Shown piece by piece: positions 551-44,740 of a stretch of DNA of 64,000 nt. The stretch covers positions 24,056 to 88,055 of the forward strand of contig CAYIGH010000001.1 of NCBI GenBank assembly GCA_964362915.1, given 5' to 3'. The position numbers and the translations under genes were made by a program. The DNA is from Candidatus Woesearchaeota archaeon. Its GTDB lineage: Archaea > Nanobdellota > Nanobdellia > Pacearchaeales > GW2011-AR1. Position 1 is the stretch's first letter, and every line of letters begins with the position of its first letter. The notes under the pieces are model-generated. The model was not told the DNA's origin and made no database searches. It saw nothing but the letters and a program-made list of their open reading frames with translations.

Positions 551-723
551 GATCCCATAGCTCAGCCCGGTTTAGAGCACCGCTCTTATAAGACTATGGT
601 TCGTTGGAACTGTATTTTCAAGCTAAGAAGATTTAGAAAGTCTTCAAGCAAAGCAAGGGTGTTAAACACACTCTTCAAAGCTAAGAAAGGCGGGGGTCCG
701 GAGTTCAAATCTCCGTGGGATCA
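551..723 (+). tRNA. tRNA with apparent UAU anticodon (tRNA-Ile-like), carrying a ~97-nt intron at the canonical 37/38 position (approx 591-687)
   Basis: Acceptor GATCCCA pairs with TGGGATC and the discriminator is A. D-arm is GCTC-AGCCCGGTTTA-GAGC. Anticodon stem CCGCT/GGCGG pairs only after removing the insert. Loop is CTTATA|A, T-arm is CGGAG-TTCAAAT-CTCCG, and no CCA is encoded. Confidence 0.55.
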
Positions 724-13025: not shown

Positions 13026-13526
13026 ATGATATTTATAGTAAAGGTAACAACTAATAAAGAAGACAAGGTTATAAATATGATTAGCGAGAGAGCTATTAAA
13101 AAAAATCTTTCTATTCTTTCTTTAGCCAGGCCACACGGATTAAAAGGATATATTATTTTAGAAGCAAGTGATAGAGATTCTGCAGAAGAGTGCGCATTTA
13201 ATTTGCCTTATGTAAAGGGCATTGTGAAGAAAACAGTTGAATATGAAGAAATCAAGAATATGCTAGAACCAAAGATAGAAGATTACAATATTGAAGTTGG
13301 AGATATTGTTGAGATGATTGGACAAACTTTCAAAGGAGAAAAGGCAAAAGTTATTAGAATTGACAAAACTAAAGGCGAAATAGTTGTTTCTCTTTTGGGC
13401 GCCTCTGTACCTATTCCTGTAACAGTTAAAATAGATAACGTAAAGGTCATAAGACGCGAAAAAGAAGATAGTGAAAGCAAGGAAGAAATAAAAGAGGAGG
13501 ATTTAGATTTAGAAAATGAAAGTTAA
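13026..13526 (+). CDS. spt5: transcription elongation factor Spt5 (NusG homolog)
   Basis: NGN-like N-terminus plus KOW motif GDIVEMIGQTFKGEKAKVIRID, immediately upstream of L11 as in other archaea. Confidence 0.75.
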   Translation: MIFIVKVTTNKEDKVINMISERAIKKNLSILSLARPHGLKGYIILEASDRDSAEECAFNLPYVKGIVKKTVEYEEIKNMLEPKIEDYNIEVGDIVEMIGQTFKGEKAKVIRIDKTKGEIVVSLLGASVPIPVTVKIDNVKVIRREKEDSESKEEIKEEDLDLENES

Positions 13527-14274
13527 ATTGATTGTTGATGGAGGAAAGATGCAGCCAGGACCAGCAGTAGCTCAGCAACTTGGGCCTATGGGAATAAATT
13601 TAGGAAAAGTTATTTCTGGTGTTAATGATGCTACAAAAGGATTTTCTGGGATGAAAGTTCCTGTGGAAATTGATGTTGATTCAAAAACTAAGGAGTTTAG
13701 CATAAATGTTTTCTCACCGCCTGTTGCAGAATTGATAAAGAAAGAGCTTGTATTGGAAAAAGGATCAGGCCAGCCACATACATTCAAAGTGGGGAATATT
13801 GCTTTAGAAAGAATTATTTTTATTGCAAAAACAAAAATGCCTAATTTATTGGCTAAGGATTTAAGGGCTGCTGTTAAACTTGTTGTGGGCACTTGCGTTT
13901 CTATGGGTGTAATGATTGATAATAAGGAGGCGAAAGAAGTTGAGAAAGATATCACAGGAGGAAAGTATGATAAAGAAATAAAAGATGAAATTACTGATGT
14001 TTCTAAAGATAAAAAAGAAAAATTAGAAAAATTCTTTGCTGTTAGAAAGGCCAAGCAGGAGAGAGATATTAAGGCTGCTGAAGAGGCAAAGGCTGCTGAA
14101 GAGGCTGCAGAGGCGGCAAAGAAAGCTGAAGCAGGAGCGGCGGCAGGGGCTGCGCCTGCTGGAGAAAGTGCTGTTGCTGAGACTGGAAAGAAAGCTGTTG
14201 CGCCTGCTGGAGGGAAGAAGGAAGAAGCTAAGAAAGAAGAGCCTGTGAAGAAGGCCGAAGGAAAGAAGAAGTAA
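13516..14274 (+). CDS. rpl11: 50S ribosomal protein L11 (uL11) with ~85-aa Ala/Lys/Glu-rich C-terminal extension
   Basis: KMQPGPAVAQQLGPMGINLGKV...VPVEIDVDSKTKEFSINVFSPPVAELIKKE is a canonical L11 core. The tail is KAAEEAKAAEEAAEAAKKAEAGAAAGAAPAG...KKEEAKKEEPVKKAEGKKK. Confidence 0.85.
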   Translation: MKVKLIVDGGKMQPGPAVAQQLGPMGINLGKVISGVNDATKGFSGMKVPVEIDVDSKTKEFSINVFSPPVAELIKKELVLEKGSGQPHTFKVGNIALERIIFIAKTKMPNLLAKDLRAAVKLVVGTCVSMGVMIDNKEAKEVEKDITGGKYDKEIKDEITDVSKDKKEKLEKFFAVRKAKQERDIKAAEEAKAAEEAAEAAKKAEAGAAAGAAPAGESAVAETGKKAVAPAGGKKEEAKKEEPVKKAEGKKK

Positions 14275-14355
14275 ACTACTTGAATATATATTCTCCATAA
14301 AGAATTTAGTGGTTTACGGAAAGATTAAAAAGCATAATTCTTTCAGAAATTATAT

Positions 14356-14429
14356 GGGGTCGTGGTGTAACCTGGTTAGCATTACAGGTTTGGGACCTGT
14401 CAGTCTGGGTTCAAATCCCAGCGATCCCA
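14356..14429 (+). tRNA. tRNA-Pro (anticodon UGG)
   Basis: Acceptor GGGGTCG pairs with CGATCCC. Anticodon stem ACAGG/CCTGT, loop TTTGGGA, T-arm CTGGG-TTCAAAT-CCCAG. Confidence 0.8.
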
Positions 14430-14470
14430 TTTATAGAACAATTTAAAAAGGTTGTAAAATAGGAAACTTT

Positions 14471-14695
14471 ATGGGAGCAAAAACAAAGAAAATTCAAAGT
14501 GCAGGAAAATTCGGAGCAGGATACGGAATCAGAGTTAGAAAGAATTATAATAAAATTGAAGATCTGCAAAGAAAAAGACAAATATCTCCTTTTTATGAAA
14601 AAGCAAGAGCAAAAAGAATCGCGGCTGGAATTTGGAAATGCTTGAAAACTGGGAAGATATTTGCTGGGCCTGCTTATTATTTGGAAAAGAAATAG
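14471..14695 (+). CDS. rpl37ae: 50S ribosomal protein L37Ae (eL43), variant lacking the zinc-finger cysteines
   Basis: GAKTKKIQSAGKFGAGYGIRVRK...AAGIWKC matches the L37ae N-terminus and GIW core. Only one Cys is present. Confidence 0.7.
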   Translation: MGAKTKKIQSAGKFGAGYGIRVRKNYNKIEDLQRKRQISPFYEKARAKRIAAGIWKCLKTGKIFAGPAYYLEKK

Positions 14696-14743: not shown

Positions 14744-14881
14744 ATGGCTCAATACAAATGTTTCCAATGCGGAAAATCAATAAGCAGCAAGGCACTGGAA
14801 AAAAGATTTATCTGCCCGCATTGTGGCGCTAAAATATTTTATAAACCGAGAATGCAAAGCGTTAAGCTTAAGGCTGTTTAA
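14744..14881 (+). CDS. rpoP: DNA-directed RNA polymerase subunit P (Rpo12), 45 aa, not in the ORF track
   Basis: Translates to MAQYKCFQCGKSISSKALEKRFICPHCGAKIFYKPRMQSVKLKAV, with two CxxC pairs typical of RpoP. It sits in the conserved L37ae-RpoP adjacency. Confidence 0.7.
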   Translation: MAQYKCFQCGKSISSKALEKRFICPHCGAKIFYKPRMQSVKLKAV

Positions 14882-15223
14882 ATGGATATTTCTAATGATA
14901 ATGCAAAAACTATCGAAGAATTACATATTTTAGAGCACAATCTGCAAAATACTCTGGCTCAAAAACAAATGTTTCAAGTTGAATTACAAGAAGTAGAAAA
15001 TGCCTTATTGGAATTAAAAAAAACGAATGACGAAGTTTATAAGATTTTATCAGGAGTTATGATGAGGGCTGAAAAAGAAGATTTGATTAAGGAGCTGGAA
15101 GAAAAAAAGAGATTTTTGGAATTGAGAATAAGCTCTATAGAAAAACAAGAAAGAATATTGGGAGATAGAAGCACTAAACTAAGAGAAAAACTTAAGGTCT
15201 CTATAAATAAAGAGAGAAAATAA
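14882..15223 (+). CDS. pfdB: prefoldin beta subunit
   Basis: 113-aa coiled-coil protein with central beta-hairpin region. Position after rpoP. Confidence 0.6.
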   Translation: MDISNDNAKTIEELHILEHNLQNTLAQKQMFQVELQEVENALLELKKTNDEVYKILSGVMMRAEKEDLIKELEEKKRFLELRISSIEKQERILGDRSTKLREKLKVSINKERK

Positions 15224-38806: not shown

Positions 38807-41800
38807 TTAATATCCCATAAATATCTTTCTTCTCATATGTACTTTTAAATAAATAACCACAATGACAGCAACTACAATCAATGATAAACTAATCCATATT
38901 ATGCCACTAAGTGCTCCTCTGTTCTCAGAAGGTATTTTTTCCTGCTCTCCTGCTTCAGAGCCACTATCTACCCCTTTTTCTCCGCTTTCTATTGGTGGTT
39001 GACTTAATTCTCCCTCTGATTCAGATGTTGTTGCATTCTCTTTCTTTGGTTTTGAAACACTGGCCCCTCCAGAGCCCCCACCACTACTACTTCCTCCAGA
39101 ACTTCCTCCTGAAGAAGTGGATTCTCTATATGTGGAAAACTCGCAGAATGGAATCTGCCATATGCAATTTGTCGAATCAATTAAAGTTGCTTCAGATGTT
39201 CTATCAACACAATTTGCTCCATTATTATCACAATGAAACAATTGATTACATGTTCCGCTAAATGGTATCTTTACTCTGCAGACCTCTGGATATAAGTTAT
39301 TTATTATCTTGTCTCTTGTCTCAGAAGTTAATCCTGCGTATGTTGAAGTATTAATAATTGAACCTGCCGTGCTAATTGTCCTAACCTTATCATTCAATCC
39401 TGTTTTAGTCAATGAGGCATTAATAAATTCAAAGTAATTACTACCATCGGTATTATTGAGCTTAATATTAATACGTCTTCCTTCTGTATAGTTAGTTTTC
39501 CTGCCAGCATTAGCTCCACATACTTGTCCTTGTATATGCTCATAAACGTTATTTTGATCAATATCATATGATACTGTCCAGCCAGATGGTGCCTTAATCC
39601 TAGTCACAAAACTGCAGAAACCGCATTTATTATTTAGGGTAGCAGTGACGAATGAACTACATTTGCTAATAGCGCATTTATTTTTGTCATCACAAGCTTT
39701 TAGCTTATAATAATAAGTCGTCCCATTAACTAGATTATAGCGCAACGAACGAACTCCGCCGTCATTGTAAATATCTGCTTTATGCCATAACTTATAATCT
39801 CTTACATTGGTGCTAAGCACTCCAACATCATTAATTGTTGCATTTAATGTAATACATCTTGAATCATTTCCGTAAAACTCAAGGCTCCCATTTGCAGGCT
39901 TATTGGTATCATACATAATTAAAGCAGAGTCTGGATATTCTTCTATCTTAACGCCTACAACTTGCGGCGTTTTAGTATCAGTATAATTCGCGGCATTTAC
40001 ACCTGTGCTAGAGCATACAGATAGAAAATCACAATCCCAATCAAAGCAATCTATATTGCCGTCGTTATCATTGTCTATATTATCAAAGCAATCCTCATAT
40101 TGCACATATCCCTTCCTTAATATGTCCTCAAACTTTGCTGCGTCTGCTCCATAGTCAAAACAGCCTGCAATTTCAAAGTCAACAGCTCCAGGTGTAGTAT
40201 AACCAGGGCCAGCTGTATCAGTTGGAAATGTAACATTGCCAGTTCCAGGATTCCCAATTGTTGCAGCATATACTCTCATATCTTTTGTTGAATCATATAA
40301 TGTAGGGAATCTATTCAAGTCTGCCTTTTGTACAGCTATCATAGGCCCGCCAATTTCAGAACACATTAGCTTCTTCCATACATTTAATTTGATATCACTA
40401 GCTGCCCACTGGGAATTTTCGCATGTATAAGCATTAAATGTTTCTACTGCTTTTTCTTTAGTAGCATTCCATTCAGAGGCATATCTAAATCTAAATTCGT
40501 ACCCTTTAGCAGAAGAATTATGGTTTAATTCACATCCTCCGCTAGTTAAACCATCTGTATCCAAATAAACAAAGAATATTACTGTATCATTTCCGTTGCC
40601 AATTCTTTCAATTCCGTAACTCGTTAATTTTTCTTTGTTGCATAAAGAGGCATTAGTAAAGTCCAACATATTAGCTCCAAATCCAAATCCATCTCCCATA
40701 TCTTTCATTCCAATACCACAAATATCTACACTTCTTTGACTTATCCCTGCCTCAGGACAATTATCTACTGCTATTGGCACAGGAGCCCCTGTTTCTATAC
40801 TATTAAATGATTCAACTGTTCCAGCTGTATTGCACCATCCAGTAACCCATTTGCATCCACTTCCACATGCTCCCTGAGTTGTAGCATTAAAGCAGGTTGG
40901 CTCACATCCATAAGAAGTAGCATTACAATATAGATTTGCGTTACATAATGTGGCATTATTTACTAAAGTTGTATTGCTCCAGCATTGGTCCATGACATTA
41001 GTACAGTAATTTCCATTAGAATTCCACCAACATCCATTAGTAGCATTACATCCTACAGCCACAGATGTATAACTCCAGCATTCTTTGCTCCAATCAACTT
41101 CGCATCTTGGGTTAGATTCTGGGAACCATCCGCAACTGATATTTATAATAGTCTTATTCGTGCAGAATGTTTGATTACCATTATATTTCCAGCATTCAGC
41201 CCCGGATGCTCCTCCAACTCCACCTCCTCCCACAACGGAGCCTCCAGAAAATCCTCCTCCTTTAGGATCACACCATCCAGGATTATTCCACTTACATCCT
41301 GATATTGCTGCGCAATTTGTTTGGTTATTAGAACTTGTTGCATTATAGCAAGTATTTGATTGCTGTTCTTCACACCAGCCATTTTCTGCCTTCCATAAAC
41401 ATCCTGAAGTAGTTGTACAGCTAGTTGAAGAAGTTATATTAAAGCATGCTGGCTCACATGTTCCGCCTCCTCCTCCATAATCTCTCCAATTGCAGCTAAC
41501 TTGAGTAACACCATTACAACTAGCTTTAGTTGTTTGGCTCCAGCATCTGTCAAAATTATTTGCACACCATGCGCTGTTAATTCCTCCAAATGTTTCATTT
41601 CTCCACCAACACCCGTTATTTTCACAATTTGATTGAGCATTATAATTCCAACAACTAGTGCTCCAGTTTACTTCACAATGGGGTTGTGACCATGTATCAA
41701 CTCTCCAACTGCATCCAGCAGTAGTGCTACATGAGGAATTTTCATATTTCTGCCAACAACTCTTTGGCTTGAAATCATTATGGTCACACCATCCTCCATC

Positions 41801-44740
41801 TGTTTTACACCATTCAGTTCCTTTTCCAAATCCATCACACCATGTGTCATTTGTCCAGCCACAATCAGTAGTGCTATAACATTGACTTTGATTCAAATTA
41901 AAGCACTTTTCTCCTATACTCCAGTCTCTTTCACACCAACCGCTTCCTGTTCCATTGTTCCATTCACAATTAGAACTTTTATTAGCATAGAACCTAAAAC
42001 TAACATAATAAATATCATTTGAGCCTCCTCCGCCAACCATATATGTATTGTTAGTAAAGTTAATTGTTTGTCTCGTATAATCTGCTGTAAAGTTTCCACT
42101 GCCTAGAATAGTCCCGCTTTTATTTGTCATATTTACGCTTCCGCTTATCCATCCTGTTCCCAAATTACCTAACTGGAATGTCTTGCTTTGATTTATATTG
42201 TTTGCAGACAATCTTGCAGATGATATATTTAACGTTTCATTAATAACAGTAGTATCTCCTAAACATTCTACTTCAGAATTGTCATATCTCCAACAAGAAC
42301 TTCCTTTAAAATCACACCATCCTTTTGGATTCCATGTATCATTTACCCATTCACAACTATTAGTTTCACATTGAGATTTAGTTGTCCAGCCAAAACAATC
42401 TCCTTCTACAAATCCGCACCATGTATCTGAATAACAACTTGGATCGCCACAATCTACTAGTGCATTATTATTGTTGTCTATACCATCCCAGCATATTTCA
42501 ACGTCCTCTCCAATATTTTGCACACAGCTCCCATCATTATCAGTTCCCTGCCATTTACAGCTTCCAGTAGAATTCAACGCGCTTCTCCCTTCATTAGCAC
42601 ACTTATCTCTTGTCTTGCATCTGTCACATGCGTCAAGGCATGTTTTTTCTCCTTTATCTGCGCAATATCCACCTGTTAAGGTGCTATTCTCTATAATCCA
42701 TTTACATCCTCCACCATTTGAATTTGCTTTGCTCTCTGAACAGAAGCATGCTGGAGTCAAACAATTTCCTGCAGAACTTCTTGAGGCATTATTCTTAGAA
42801 TCTCCAAGAAATGTACAATCTCCACATACTGAATTACAATCACCAGCCAAACCTTTTTTCCATTGTTCTTTTGCTTTGCAATATCCTATTCTATTTGGAG
42901 CACTAGTATCTGCTTCAAATTCACAATATCCTAATTTGCTTCCTATACAAGCTGATTTAGCATTTGTTGCATTAACTAAATTACCGTTACCATCTTTTAT
43001 TTCGCATGCAAAGCAAGCTTTATCACAATTTTCTTCATCATCAAATTTGTATTCGCATCTCCCTGTAGGAACAGAAACACTTCCCTCACAATAATTCTCT
43101 ATAATCCACTTTCCTCCAGCAGCCTCACAATTCCTTTGATTTTCAATCTTTACAATATTCTGTGTACTATTCCCAAAAACATCAGTTACTTTGAATTCGC
43201 ATTTGTTTGTTGAATTATTCCATTTACAAGGCATGTACCAAGGGTCTCCTGCAATTTTCTCGCAATTTGAGCTTGTTTCTGCATCTTCACATGCCTTCTC
43301 GCCATTTGGAGTCTGATCCAATTGATCAAAACAGCTCCTTGACTGCCTGTTCTCCGCACAAGTTCCATTCTGCCAGCTGCAACAAGTGCTTAAAGAAGCG
43401 ACATTGTTGCATAAATCAGATTCATTTATTTGATAACAAAATATACCCTTTGCATTAATTGCAGTTCCATTCACCTCATTTGTATTTTTGCATAAACTGC
43501 TAGTATAATTACACCCTATTACGCTATTGCACTTTGTAGAATTTGTATCAAAAATGTAACATCCTGGATTCCATTCATTTAAAATGCTACCATTGATATT
43601 CACAAAATCGCCGCTTCCAAAAGTCGGAGTTGTGCAATTTCCTCCTTTAGTTGAATCCTTCCAATCATTCGCCTGCCACCAACAATAAAATGTATCATAA
43701 CATGCTTTTTCTGTGGTTACATTAGCACAGCTTGTAGAAGAAACCTCCTTATAGCACCATCCATTTGTCGTATTTCCAGTTGGATTACCACTCCATTTAC
43801 ATGTAATACCATAAGAGTTTTGCTCGCATTTAGACTGATTTCCTAGTTTAAAAGAGTCCCAATTCCAGCAATTAACCTCTTCGCATGATCCTGTAGTATT
43901 ATAAGATTGCCATAGACAGTTTTTTTTGTCCTTACAACTAGATTCTGTATTCATATCATAGCAAGAATCTGTAACGCACAAATTATTGATACTCTGCCAT
44001 TTACAAGATTCTCCTAGAGTATTATTTACGCAAGCTGTTTGATTAGTATAATCGAAACTCGAACAGCCTTTTTGTTGACAAGATCCCCATTTCCATTCAC
44101 AATTTATCCCTTGAGCAGATTCACATGCTGTTTTATTCGAATATAATGTACTATCCCAACAATTATTTTCTCTACAATAACTTCCAGAAGCACCCCATGT
44201 ACAATTAATTCCTCTCCAATCTAGCCCTGAGTTACAAGCTGATTGTGACGTATAAATATTACAGCCTTTTTCAATACATTGTCCCCATCCGCATCCTGTT
44301 GTATTCTTGCATGCTGCTTCAGTAGCAATACCCCAACACCCTACATTCAGGCCACCTGTAACTTGATAGCATTGCCCGCTCCAACTACACGATTTGTTAA
44401 AGTAATTATTCTCACATTGAGTTTGATTAGTAGCTGAGAAAGCCCAACAACTTGCAGTTGTACACCAAGAACTAGCTGTTCCATTTGTCCATGTACAATT
44501 TTTCCCTGCAATGGTTGTTGTCGTACATGAAGACTGATTAGCCAAACTCCAGCAATTTAATTCTTCACACCAGCTTCCCCAAGTATCATTTCTCCACAAA
44601 CATCCATTTGAAAGCGTGCAAGTGGATGAAGAAGTATAAGTCCAGCAACTTGCAGCGATAACAAAACTCAAAGATAAAATTATACCAACTGTTATAAAAG
44701 ATAGGATTGTAAAAAATCTAGACTCTTTTAACACCATCAA
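38807..44740 (-). CDS. giant (1977 aa) Cys/Trp-rich extracellular protein with N-terminal signal/TM and C-terminal TM anchor
   Basis: Recurring C-x-W / NCW / CxWxxxxW motifs and very dense NxS/T sequons. Gly/Ser linker near the C-terminus followed by TM IIWISLSLIVVAVIVVIYL and a basic tail. Confidence 0.65.
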   Translation of the reverse strand: MMVLKESRFFTILSFITVGIILSLSFVIAASCWTYTSSSTCTLSNGCLWRNDTWGSWCEELNCWSLANQSSCTTTTIAGKNCTWTNGTASSWCTTASCWAFSATNQTQCENNYFNKSCSWSGQCYQVTGGLNVGCWGIATEAACKNTTGCGWGQCIEKGCNIYTSQSACNSGLDWRGINCTWGASGSYCRENNCWDSTLYSNKTACESAQGINCEWKWGSCQQKGCSSFDYTNQTACVNNTLGESCKWQSINNLCVTDSCYDMNTESSCKDKKNCLWQSYNTTGSCEEVNCWNWDSFKLGNQSKCEQNSYGITCKWSGNPTGNTTNGWCYKEVSSTSCANVTTEKACYDTFYCWWQANDWKDSTKGGNCTTPTFGSGDFVNINGSILNEWNPGCYIFDTNSTKCNSVIGCNYTSSLCKNTNEVNGTAINAKGIFCYQINESDLCNNVASLSTCCSWQNGTCAENRQSRSCFDQLDQTPNGEKACEDAETSSNCEKIAGDPWYMPCKWNNSTNKCEFKVTDVFGNSTQNIVKIENQRNCEAAGGKWIIENYCEGSVSVPTGRCEYKFDDEENCDKACFACEIKDGNGNLVNATNAKSACIGSKLGYCEFEADTSAPNRIGYCKAKEQWKKGLAGDCNSVCGDCTFLGDSKNNASRSSAGNCLTPACFCSESKANSNGGGCKWIIENSTLTGGYCADKGEKTCLDACDRCKTRDKCANEGRSALNSTGSCKWQGTDNDGSCVQNIGEDVEICWDGIDNNNNALVDCGDPSCYSDTWCGFVEGDCFGWTTKSQCETNSCEWVNDTWNPKGWCDFKGSSCWRYDNSEVECLGDTTVINETLNISSARLSANNINQSKTFQLGNLGTGWISGSVNMTNKSGTILGSGNFTADYTRQTINFTNNTYMVGGGGSNDIYYVSFRFYANKSSNCEWNNGTGSGWCERDWSIGEKCFNLNQSQCYSTTDCGWTNDTWCDGFGKGTEWCKTDGGWCDHNDFKPKSCWQKYENSSCSTTAGCSWRVDTWSQPHCEVNWSTSCWNYNAQSNCENNGCWWRNETFGGINSAWCANNFDRCWSQTTKASCNGVTQVSCNWRDYGGGGGTCEPACFNITSSTSCTTTSGCLWKAENGWCEEQQSNTCYNATSSNNQTNCAAISGCKWNNPGWCDPKGGGFSGGSVVGGGGVGGASGAECWKYNGNQTFCTNKTIINISCGWFPESNPRCEVDWSKECWSYTSVAVGCNATNGCWWNSNGNYCTNVMDQCWSNTTLVNNATLCNANLYCNATSYGCEPTCFNATTQGACGSGCKWVTGWCNTAGTVESFNSIETGAPVPIAVDNCPEAGISQRSVDICGIGMKDMGDGFGFGANMLDFTNASLCNKEKLTSYGIERIGNGNDTVIFFVYLDTDGLTSGGCELNHNSSAKGYEFRFRYASEWNATKEKAVETFNAYTCENSQWAASDIKLNVWKKLMCSEIGGPMIAVQKADLNRFPTLYDSTKDMRVYAATIGNPGTGNVTFPTDTAGPGYTTPGAVDFEIAGCFDYGADAAKFEDILRKGYVQYEDCFDNIDNDNDGNIDCFDWDCDFLSVCSSTGVNAANYTDTKTPQVVGVKIEEYPDSALIMYDTNKPANGSLEFYGNDSRCITLNATINDVGVLSTNVRDYKLWHKADIYNDGGVRSLRYNLVNGTTYYYKLKACDDKNKCAISKCSSFVTATLNNKCGFCSFVTRIKAPSGWTVSYDIDQNNVYEHIQGQVCGANAGRKTNYTEGRRINIKLNNTDGSNYFEFINASLTKTGLNDKVRTISTAGSIINTSTYAGLTSETRDKIINNLYPEVCRVKIPFSGTCNQLFHCDNNGANCVDRTSEATLIDSTNCIWQIPFCEFSTYRESTSSGGSSGGSSSGGGSGGASVSKPKKENATTSESEGELSQPPIESGEKGVDSGSEAGEQEKIPSENRGALSGIIWISLSLIVVAVIVVIYLKVHMRRKIFMGY

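Follow-up and report, generated by a model that had tools for sequence, protein, structure and literature searches.

The gene for ribosomal protein uL11 (rpl11) studied here, from a tiny-celled (DPANN) archaeon, is located on the forward strand of the window, by which we mean the whole 64-kb stretch of DNA that was analysed. At its 5′ end it overlaps with the gene for Spt5/NusG, and downstream it is followed by a tRNA gene and the genes for L37ae, RpoP and prefoldin beta. The features of the locus are:

13026..13526 (+): Spt5/NusG gene with an acidic C-terminal tail (PF03439 and KOW); its last 11 nt are shared with the start of L11
13516..14274 (+): uL11 (rpl11) gene, 252 aa plus stop codon (ORF, Pfam, phmmer, AF2)
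13522..13698 (+): L11 N-terminal domain, residues 3-61 (PF03946, Ribosomal_L11_N, E = 6e-17)
13714..13917 (+): L11 rRNA-binding C-terminal domain, residues 67-134 (PF00298, Ribosomal_L11, E = 1.4e-20)
13918..13989 (+): short C-terminal helices common to archaeal L11s, residues 135-158, the canonical end (alignment; AF2 helices 139-147 and 152-156)
13990..14139 (+): extension part 1, residues 159-208, an "I-T-E/D-V-S" lead-in (159-163) followed by a long alpha-helix (164-208) (AF2, alignment)
14071..14105 (+): 18-nt tandem duplication inside the tail, KAAEEA x2 (TRF: period 18, 1.9 copies, 100% match)
14140..14271 (+): extension part 2, residues 209-252, disordered: Ala/Gly/Pro linker, then a lysine-rich end (KKEE...KKK) (AF2, alignment)
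13572..14054 (-): spurious ORF, 160 aa (ORF list)
14023..14298 (-): spurious antisense ORF, 91 aa (ORF list)
14036..14248 (+): spurious ORF in another frame, 70 aa (ORF list)
14355..14430 (+): tRNA-Pro (TGG), directly 3′ of L11 (ARAGORN; Rfam tRNA, 58.9 bits)
14471..14695 (+): L37ae gene, at the site where L1 is expected (PF01780, E = 6e-20)
14744..14881 (+): RpoP (Pfam)
14882..15223 (+): prefoldin beta (Pfam)

Gene neighbourhood of uL11

The upstream half of the archaeal operon order (SecE)-Spt5/NusG-L11-L1-L10-L12 is kept at this locus and the downstream half is absent. The first-pass annotation of the window had observed correctly that L1, L10 and L12 do not follow L11 and that tRNA-Pro and L37ae are found there instead. 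The Spt5 gene is located directly 5′ of L11 in related loci as well (L002, L003, L005, L006, L007, L013, L019 and L022), and in L020 two genes lie between them. Homologues of L37ae are likewise found 3′ of L11 (L002, L003, L005, L006, L009 and L013), and the order L37ae-RpoP-prefoldin beta recurs in relatives. The operon context is typical of the uL11 family rather than defining for it, and relatives show the same break.

Genes for L1, P0 and P1 gave no tblastn match in the 64-kb window, neither with Pyrococcus and Methanocaldococcus queries nor with lineage-specific queries taken from relatives, and the window contains no rRNA gene. The L1-P0-P1 cluster is present in relatives whose L11 carries the same extension (L003, L005, L006 and L007), either 7-10 kb from L11 on the opposite strand or ~1 kb downstream. 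Since these relatives keep the three genes elsewhere, a loss of the stalk is ruled out and the missing genes represent a lineage-typical rearrangement.

The canonical core of the protein

The uL11 ORF is one unbroken frame, and its matches to both L11 domain families exceed the gathering scores. In a phmmer search of PDB sequences, residues 3-154 matched L11 of P. furiosus with E = 4e-43. The solved archaeal L11s from M. jannaschii (5col, 161 aa) and P. furiosus (4v6u, 164 aa) cover query residues 3-158 only, with the alignments stopping at query residues 154-158, and the identity to canonical archaeal L11s amounts to 43-52%. The core of the AF2 model agrees with M. jannaschii L11 (5d8h_C) at a TM score of 0.90 and an rmsd of 1.6 Å over 153 columns (Foldseek).

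As the solved archaeal L11s (158-164 aa) stop at query residue 158, ~94 residues (159-252) are extra. A tail of ~85 residues starting at about residue 165 had been described initially; the extension itself is confirmed, but the alignment with solved L11s moves its boundary to residue 159. The protein shares with canonical archaeal uL11 (M. jannaschii 5D8H/5COL; P. furiosus 4V6U) the two domains, the short C-terminal helices, the fold and the gene position right after Spt5/NusG, but it differs by the added C-terminal residues and by the detachment of its gene from L1-P0-P1. There is hardly any doubt about identity and anatomy: the protein is a true uL11, and the extension at its C-terminus is specific to the lineage.

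Anatomy and composition of the extension

The extension falls into two parts of different character. The helix of the first part spans 45 residues (~68 Å) at AF2 pLDDT values of 76-86, its proximal stretch KLEKFFAV being amphipathic and its distal stretch rich in Ala, Glu and Lys. Residues Q181, K186, A187, E189, A191 and E196 are invariant in an alignment of 46 sequences, the motif EEAKAA[EA]E is present in 100/120 close homologues, and the lead-in TEVSxEKKxxL is kept even at 35-45% core identity. The distal part is poorly conserved in sequence, and pLDDT is below 50 for residues 211-252. The second part varies in length and retains its block order, ending in a K-rich stretch in 119 of the 120 close homologues.

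The tail as a whole is composed of 28% Ala, 23% Lys and 17% Glu, has a net charge of +5 and terminates in KKAEGKKK, so that the Ala/Lys/Glu-rich character noted at first reading is real. Its designation as low complexity is appropriate for this composition, but not for the first half, which is a conserved and confidently predicted helix with invariant residues. In a scan of the whole 64-kb window for segments with at least 80% A/K/E/G/P across 30 residues, the tail was the sole segment found, and no comparable tail is present on the window's five other ribosomal proteins. Local GC content reaches 0.59 at the tail versus ~0.32 in the flanks.

Searched alone against Pfam at E-values up to 10, the tail gave a chance match only, and a PDB fold search with the AF2 model of uL11 returned matches confined to the core, none of them over the tail. 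The helix was also compared with single alpha-helix (SAH) domains, which are long, isolated, E/K/R-rich helices with a surplus of opposite-charge pairs. It is 53% charged and 31% Ala, and it has 15 opposite-charge pairs at i to i+3/i+4 versus a shuffle mean of 11.9; this is no significant excess (p = 0.17).

Occurrence of the tail among relatives

The extension is not restricted to the window. All 120 closest homologues from Pacearchaeota/Nanoarchaeota are tailed (67-99 aa), as are all 120 best homologues of the Woesearchaeota type (47-110 aa), with core identities of 30-85% in these 240 sequences. In addition, 12/12 DPANN genome loci (L002-L013) have a tailed L11, and ~56 of the 108 nearest L11 clusters at 50% identity are tailed, counting clusters that reach the core end. 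Judged from these alignments, the extension is common to Pacearchaeota and Woesearchaeota (GTDB Nanoarchaeota), with hundreds of relatives. The comparison with archaeal L11s and relatives proposed in the first-pass annotation thus shows an extension common to all close homologues. That annotation had also allowed for a tail already described in the lineage; it is indeed common there, but full-text literature searches retrieved no published description of the tail, and L11 does not figure in a 2026 preprint that deals with insertions in universal proteins of DPANN.

The composition of the tail differs by sub-lineage and is A/P/K-rich, E/K-rich or acidic. Tails of the Woese type frequently are acidic or close to neutrality, with a median net charge of +1; P0157, P0159 and P0212 are examples of neutral or strongly acidic tails among Woese-type and other members. 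The tails of L009-L012 terminate in AKPAAKPAAKK-type repeats. L11 of L022 has 158 aa and no tail. Some database representatives (P0124, P0126, P0128 and P0134) look chimeric.

An identical 252-aa protein is encoded on a 1.4-kb contig from run ERR3858114, a run possibly not independent of the source of the window. A frameshift, sequencing or assembly error or chimeric fusion could account for the unusual length, and the few chimeric-looking representatives would fit it. However, the frame is unbroken, the identical protein comes from a contig that was assembled separately, and the same architecture recurs in hundreds of homologues taken from varied samples and sources; an artefact is thereby ruled out for all practical purposes, which also disposes of the frameshift or sequencing error considered at first. 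The tail holds up as real and, as far as sequence comparison can tell, as being under selection, given its universal presence in the homologues, the invariant helix residues and the Ala-rich codons kept at a 32% GC background.

The stalk in lineages with tailed uL11

P1 of the relatives is normal and ends in SAAGLSALFG. Their Pace-type P0 has 260-325 aa, ends in GLxxLF in none of 120 sequences, aligns to P. horikoshii P0 up to residue 252 only and has two C-terminal spine helices in AF2 models. The stalk in the tailed lineages is therefore reduced, with a normal P1 and a P0 that lacks the C-terminal factor-binding tail. A split of P0 into two genes was considered and rejected, as the small ORFs between P0 and P1 (L005, L006 and L007) are unrelated to the P0 tail. 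P0 of L022 (274 aa) is also devoid of the C-terminal motif, so that the tail-less L11 of this locus occurs together with a motif-less P0 and a strict pairing of tailed L11 with tail-less P0 does not exist.

The disordered half of the tail and the P1 hinge are alike in composition and in block order, an Ala/Pro-rich block preceding a KKEE-rich one. When the whole tail was shuffled, 0/2000 shuffles reached the score observed against P1 of L005. Block-wise shuffles against four P1 hinges gave p = 0.002, 0.08, 0.73 and 0.007. Looking significant under whole-tail shuffling but giving inconsistent values under block-wise shuffling, the likeness is taken as one of composition rather than demonstrable homology. 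The GLxxLFG/D tip is absent from the fully read L11 tails (the first 60 close homologues, the 46-sequence alignment and the loci), and the tail has no match to PF00428 (Ribosomal_60s). Likewise, the idea that the tail helix is a copy of the Pace-type P0 spine helix was dropped at an hhalign probability of 0.2%.

Compared with the hinges of archaeal/eukaryotic P1/P2/P0 (Ribosomal_60s), the tail has in common the flexible Ala/Pro/Gly-rich part followed by a KKEE-rich part and the location in the GTPase-associated centre, but the N-terminal dimerisation domain, the terminal GLxxLFG and PF00428 of these proteins are all missing, and it ends in KKK. The resemblance to stalk-protein hinges that had been suggested is thus retained for the composition and block order of the disordered half, and abandoned with respect to the tip and the Pfam family. 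By its sequence features, the tail would best be termed hinge-like, and not a stalk protein.

Flexible low-complexity segments rich in Ala, Pro and Lys are attached to folded domains associated with ribosomes or nucleic acids in several other systems, such as the hinge of bacterial bL12 and the tails of histone H1 and actinobacterial HU. The H1/HU tails belong to other host proteins and are strongly basic and Glu-poor, whereas the uL11 tail starts with a long conserved helix and contains Glu in the proportion given above. Given this Glu content, the modest net charge (+5) and the absence of PAKK repeats, the H1-like tail proposed initially is not what is found here. A precedent for a lineage-specific disordered extension of uL11 is known from eukaryotes, where the N-terminal MPPKFDP motif is flexible, contacts the P-complex and affects translation elongation (PMC9122527). 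That motif is located at the opposite terminus, is defined, comprises ~7-10 residues and has experimental support, whereas the tail in the window is C-terminal and 94 residues long, and its role is a proposed one.

Possible functions of the tail

In the GTPase-associated centre, uL11 occupies the base of the P-stalk. The best overall explanation, to which we assign a little less than an even chance, is that the lineage-specific extension forms a flexible appendage at the stalk base. From its position and composition, a functional role can be proposed tentatively. The helix would project from the stalk base as a semi-rigid spacer, and the conserved amphipathic KLEKFFAV would dock on a neighbour, which might be rRNA, P0 or the C-terminal domain of L11. 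Behind it, the hinge-like, positive string could then sweep the space near the factor-binding site and touch the acidic stalk, incoming factor-tRNA complexes or rRNA through short-lived electrostatic interactions. In this way the tail might help to position the reduced stalk or raise the local factor concentration. A purely "positive tentacle" model misfits some members, since Woese-type tails are often neutral or acidic. Further points against the proposed role are the lack of the hydrophobic tip with which stalk proteins bind aEF1A/aEF2, the poor conservation of the distal tail sequence, and L022, where a reduced P0 occurs without a tailed L11.

Many rRNA-binding and assembly extensions are present in eukaryotic, mitochondrial and actinobacterial ribosomal proteins. 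The tail could likewise be structural glue, laid against rRNA in the vicinity of H42-H44 or of the sarcin-ricin loop, that stabilises a fast-evolving, reduced ribosome, with no direct recruitment of factors. The nearly universal Lys-rich end in Pace-type sequences, the positive net charge of the tail, the conserved amphipathic proximal helix that suggests a fixed docking site and the genome-reduced DPANN lineages agree with this idea, but AF2 shows no order for the last 42 residues, the linker is variable in length and sequence, and the many neutral or strongly acidic tails of Woese-type and other members fit poorly to RNA binding; we regard it as unlikely. The same low standing is given to a largely neutral low-complexity expansion by replication slippage, which would have no specific function or serve as an entropic spacer at most and would be tolerated, as the C-terminus of uL11 faces the solvent. 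Internal tandem duplications, the variation of the distal part in length and sequence and the differing compositions of the sub-lineages count in its favour. It accounts less well for a tail kept in 240/240 homologues across such a range of core identity, for the invariant helix residues and the conserved TEVSxEKKxxL, for GC-rich Ala codons maintained in an AT-rich genome and for the lack of a comparable tail in any other protein of the 64 kb.

A further proposal turns the tail into a surrogate stalk arm that recruits translational GTPases, or its helix into an extra dock for P1 dimers, replacing the lost spine helix and tail of P0. The shortened, tail-less P0 in genomes with tailed L11 and the P1-hinge-like disordered half with its whole-tail shuffle result speak for such a replacement, but it is hard to reconcile with tails that lack the hydrophobic tip, with the failed helix comparison, with the inconsistent block-wise shuffles, with the retention of a normal P1 and with L022, where P0 is tail-less without a tailed L11. 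We therefore consider it quite improbable. Still more so is an extra-ribosomal role in which the Ala/Lys/Pro-rich tail of L11 molecules not bound to ribosomes attaches to DNA or some other polyanion. The AKPAAKPAAKK-type repeats at the ends of the L009-L012 tails do recall the tails of H1 and actinobacterial HU, but those are Glu-poor, unlike the tail in the window, many homologous tails are acidic, and the gene context gives no hint of chromatin.

Beyond the flexible appendage preferred here, a more far-reaching idea is that the GTPase-associated centre has been rewired, P0 having lost its C-terminal arm and, in the tailed lineages, the third spine helix, after which uL11 gained a helix-plus-hinge appendage that took over part of the stalk job, whether it anchors or positions P1 dimers or itself captures factors or tRNA. 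This is improbable on present evidence; if true, it would represent a functional transfer between neighbouring ribosomal proteins unseen in characterised ribosomes.

Significance for translation and annotation

Together, uL11 and the P-stalk are the recruitment and activation site for every translational GTPase and usually belong to the most conserved parts of the ribosome. A conserved uL11 appendage of ~94 residues and a tail-less P0 span one of the largest uncultured archaeal radiations, which suggests that the apparatus recruiting factors for elongation in Pacearchaeota/Woesearchaeota is built differently.

In phylogenetics, where L11 is a standard marker, the variable tail has to be trimmed off first; whether or not L11 is tailed could itself be used to mark clades within DPANN in a simple way. 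In gene calling, the GC-rich repetitive tail codons give false antisense ORFs. The first-pass annotation had anticipated this effect, and three antisense or off-frame ORFs (91, 160 and 70 aa) were found at the locus. They were judged to lie fully within the conserved, homologue-supported L11 coding frame and hence to be spurious products of the repetitive, GAA/GCT-rich codons of the tail.

The C-terminal extension of uL11

The gene for ribosomal protein uL11 is an uninterrupted ORF, the product of which begins with MKVKLIVDGG. Its domains and the ORFs overlapping it in the ORF listing are:

13516-14274 (+): uL11, 252 aa
Residues 3-61 (+): L11 N-terminal domain (Pfam)
Residues 67-134 (+): L11 rRNA-binding domain (Pfam)
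14023-14298 (-): antisense ORF
13572-14054 (-): antisense ORF
14036-14248 (+): off-frame ORF

The top PDB sequence matches are archaeal L11 proteins, namely those of P. furiosus (4v6u, 164 aa, E = 4e-43) and M. jannaschii (5col, 161 aa), and the alignments cover query residues 3 to 154-158 because the solved archaeal L11 proteins end there. Therefore, residues 159-252 (94 aa) are extra. Structurally, the core matches M. jannaschii L11 of the P-stalk base crystal structure (5d8h_C) with a TM score of 0.90, and by all features tested the protein is uL11. The first-pass annotation had described a tail of ~85 aa starting around residue 165, close to the boundary found here, and had rightly expected spurious antisense ORFs, which are accompanied by one off-frame ORF.

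The tail is rich in Ala (28%), Lys (23%) and Glu (17%) with a net charge of +5, and among all ORFs of the 64-kb window it is the sole stretch with at least 80% A/K/E/G/P over 30 residues. Its GC content is 0.59 versus 0.27-0.39 in the rest of the region. When this L11 is aligned with 45 homologues, conservation is high over the first half of the tail (consensus EVSxEKKxKLExFFAVRKAKQEKxxKALEEAKAAEEAAKAAAA, with Q181, K186, A187, E189, A191 and E196 invariant); next come an Ala/Pro/Gly segment that varies in length and a KKEE...KKK end. The “TEVSxEKKxxL” lead-in and a helical hydrophobic stripe are retained down to 30-45% core identity. AlphaFold2, run on this alignment, predicted the core with a pLDDT of ~90, a single continuous helix at residues 164-208 (pLDDT 76-86) and disorder from residue 211 to the end. 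The predicted helix is ~68 Å long, 53% charged and 31% Ala; charge pairs at i to i+3/i+4 are not above those in shuffled sequences, so no bona fide SAH domain is claimed. A PDB fold search returned no chain covering the tail, and Pfam holds no family for it.

Distribution of the extension

Among 5.8 billion clustered proteins searched, the best 120 homologues are all 225-274 aa long and all carry tails (67-99 aa, median 88), with a Lys-rich end in 119 and EEAKAA[EA]E in 100 of them; named sources are “Nanoarchaeota archaeon”, “Candidatus Pacearchaeota archaeon” and unclassified “archaeon” MAGs. A scan of GTDB species genomes gave 12 DPANN loci (L002-L013, labelled Nanoarchaeota, Pacearchaeota, Woesearchaeota or “archaeon”), every one with a tailed L11, and a Methanobacteriota locus (L014) with a tail-less one. 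An exhaustive HMMER search covered 1.84 billion 50%-identity representatives; among the best 150 matches, 108 reach the core end, ~56 of them with long tails of helical or low-complexity sequence and 44 ending no more than 25 residues on. A profile from 27 divergent tailed representatives retrieved a further 120 proteins, which are 208-271 aa long, all tailed (47-110 aa) and carry the names “Candidatus Woesearchaeota” or “Nanoarchaeota”. The extension thus characterises the Pace/Woesearchaeota radiation as a whole. An artefact can be rejected, since tails are very common in the lineage and a 1.4-kb contig in an assembly of run ERR3858114 encodes an identical protein.

In a sub-family of Woese-type tails (database proteins P0153, P0161 and P0268 as representatives), an additional conserved and apparently structured motif, AK(M/L)LEAKIPxxxIxELxP, lies within the tail; the extension has therefore diversified.

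Gene neighbourhood and stalk genes

The genes around L11 are ordered as follows:

Further upstream: L21e, RpoF, S13, S4, S11, RpoD
13026-13526 (+): Spt5/NusG, directly upstream
Downstream: tRNA-Pro(TGG), L37ae (14471-14695, +), RpoP, prefoldin beta, SepF

The last 11 nt of Spt5 overlap the start codon region of L11, which suggests translational coupling of both genes. Spt5/NusG closes with an acidic tail (REKEDSESKEEIKEEDLDLENES). The L37ae protein is only 74 aa long with a single cysteine (SPFY / WKCLKTG) and appears to have lost the usual four-Cys zinc ribbon; a “CPF” motif is kept in the more distant relatives L006, L009 and L013. The order L11-L37ae-prefoldin-SepF recurs in L002, L003, L005 and L013, sometimes with inserted genes, and L006 and L009 share at least L37ae directly downstream of L11.

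It had been remarked earlier that the stalk genes expected after L11 do not follow. This holds true: tRNA-Pro and L37ae stand in their place, and tblastn with lineage-specific queries and with Pyrococcus and Methanocaldococcus queries detected no L1, P0 (uL10) or P1 in the window. It does not amount to loss of the stalk, as relatives with tailed L11 (L003, L005, L006, L007) keep L1-P0-P1, always clustered, either 7-10 kb upstream of L11 on the opposite strand (L005, L006, L003) or ~1 kb downstream (L007). Two Woesearchaeota contigs (L019, L020) also show no stalk genes within 10 kb of L11; both carry FKBP and FtsZ upstream of Spt5 and L11, and L020 additionally SecE and two genes between Spt5 and L11. 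The arrangement is a lineage-typical rearrangement.

Stalk proteins in lineages with tailed L11

P0 of Pacearchaeota and Woesearchaeota is short and has neither the hinge nor the conserved GLxxLFG factor-binding motif at its C-terminus, and P1 at the loci below is normal. The P0 genes and the small ORFs beside them in three relatives are:

L005:1136-1957 (-): short P0/uL10
L006:380-1300 (-): short P0/uL10
L007:12311-13129 (+): short P0/uL10
L005:927-1139 (-): small ORF between P0 and P1
L006:162-365 (-): small ORF between P0 and P1
L007:13095-13562 (+): small ORF between P0 and P1

P1 is ordinary in both L005 and L007, at 94-95 aa with an Ala/Pro hinge, a KKEE block and a SAAGLSALFG ending. 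The small ORFs (67-155 aa) are mutually unrelated and also unrelated to the P0 tail, so a P0 split into two genes was rejected. In P. horikoshii P0, three spine helices each carry one P1 dimer; beyond them lie a hinge and the shared motif at the C-terminus. The P0 of L005 aligns to this protein (3a1y_G) only as far as residue 252, and AlphaFold2 predicted only two C-terminal helices for it (215-235 and 241-272). Its closest 120 homologues (P0393-P0512) are 260-325 aa long with L10 and RL10P_insert as the only Pfam domains, and none of the 120 has a GLxxLF-type C-terminal motif. Cultured archaea with solved ribosomes show the reverse pattern, with L11 of 161-164 aa and P0 of 339-348 aa.

Seven tailed L11 proteins were paired with tail-less P0 proteins by identical longest-contig sizes (e.g. 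638,991, 70,662 and 34,329 bp), which is suggestive only. The coupling is not strict: the related locus L022, with the same FKBP-FtsZ-Spt5-L11 context, encodes an L11 of 158 aa that has no tail, and after it come L1, a P0 of 274 aa lacking the motif and a normal P1. Therefore, loss of the P0 tail seems broader, and is possibly older, than gain of the L11 tail. In L015, from a GC-rich unclassified archaeon, L11 (5408-6013, +) has a shorter, acidic tail (...ELKAYEEAKAAEEAEKAEREAAKE...) and P0 (8818-9825, +; 335 aa) an acidic C-terminus without GLxxLF; this pair may be an independent or divergent case of the pattern.

Possible role of the extension

The stalk-base protein bears an appended conserved helix and a disordered, hinge-like string with a Lys-rich tip. 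Its amphipathic proximal helix may dock on a neighbour, and the distal Ala/Glu/Lys helix and linker would project the charged tip with a reach comparable to that of stalk hinges. Through transient contacts, the tip could then assist in positioning the reduced stalk, or could enrich factors or tRNA. The flexible motif at the N-terminus of uL11 that is specific to eukaryotes offers a precedent: it touches the P-complex and is required for full poly-Phe activity (PMC9122527).

Other explanations can be envisaged. The tail could act as rRNA-binding glue, but many tails are neutral or acidic, against simple RNA binding. It might be a largely neutral product of slippage, and it does contain short tandem duplications, e.g. 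an 18-nt unit coding for KAAEEA present twice; the conservation of the tail argues against neutrality. An extra-ribosomal, H1-like role is a further candidate.

Regarding a surrogate stalk arm, the disordered half resembles P1 hinges in composition and block order, but likeness beyond this is unsupported, as results of block-wise shuffling were inconsistent (p = 0.002, 0.08, 0.73, 0.007). Equivalence of the tail helix to a P0 spine helix is likewise unsupported (hhalign probability 0.2%). Moreover, stalk P-proteins end in a hydrophobic GTPase-binding tip, whereas the L11 tail has none, and this L11 falls outside the P-protein family, as it shows neither the defining C-terminal motif nor a profile match.

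That ribosomal proteins can carry lineage-specific extensions is well known. Full-text literature searches found no account of archaeal uL11 with a long, conserved extension of its C-terminus at the GTPase-associated centre; a 2026 preprint screening DPANN universal proteins for indels does not mention the tail either, and such proteins appear in databases under the plain name “50S ribosomal protein L11”. The tail is real, widespread and placed at a functionally central site, with a putative role in uncultured organisms.

Other features of the window

Two further features were recorded:

551-723 (+): tRNA over 173 nt (Rfam, 46.6 bits), missed by ARAGORN
38807-44740 (-): giant ORF, 1977 aa

The tRNA looks to be interrupted by a putative intron of ~100 nt after the anticodon loop.
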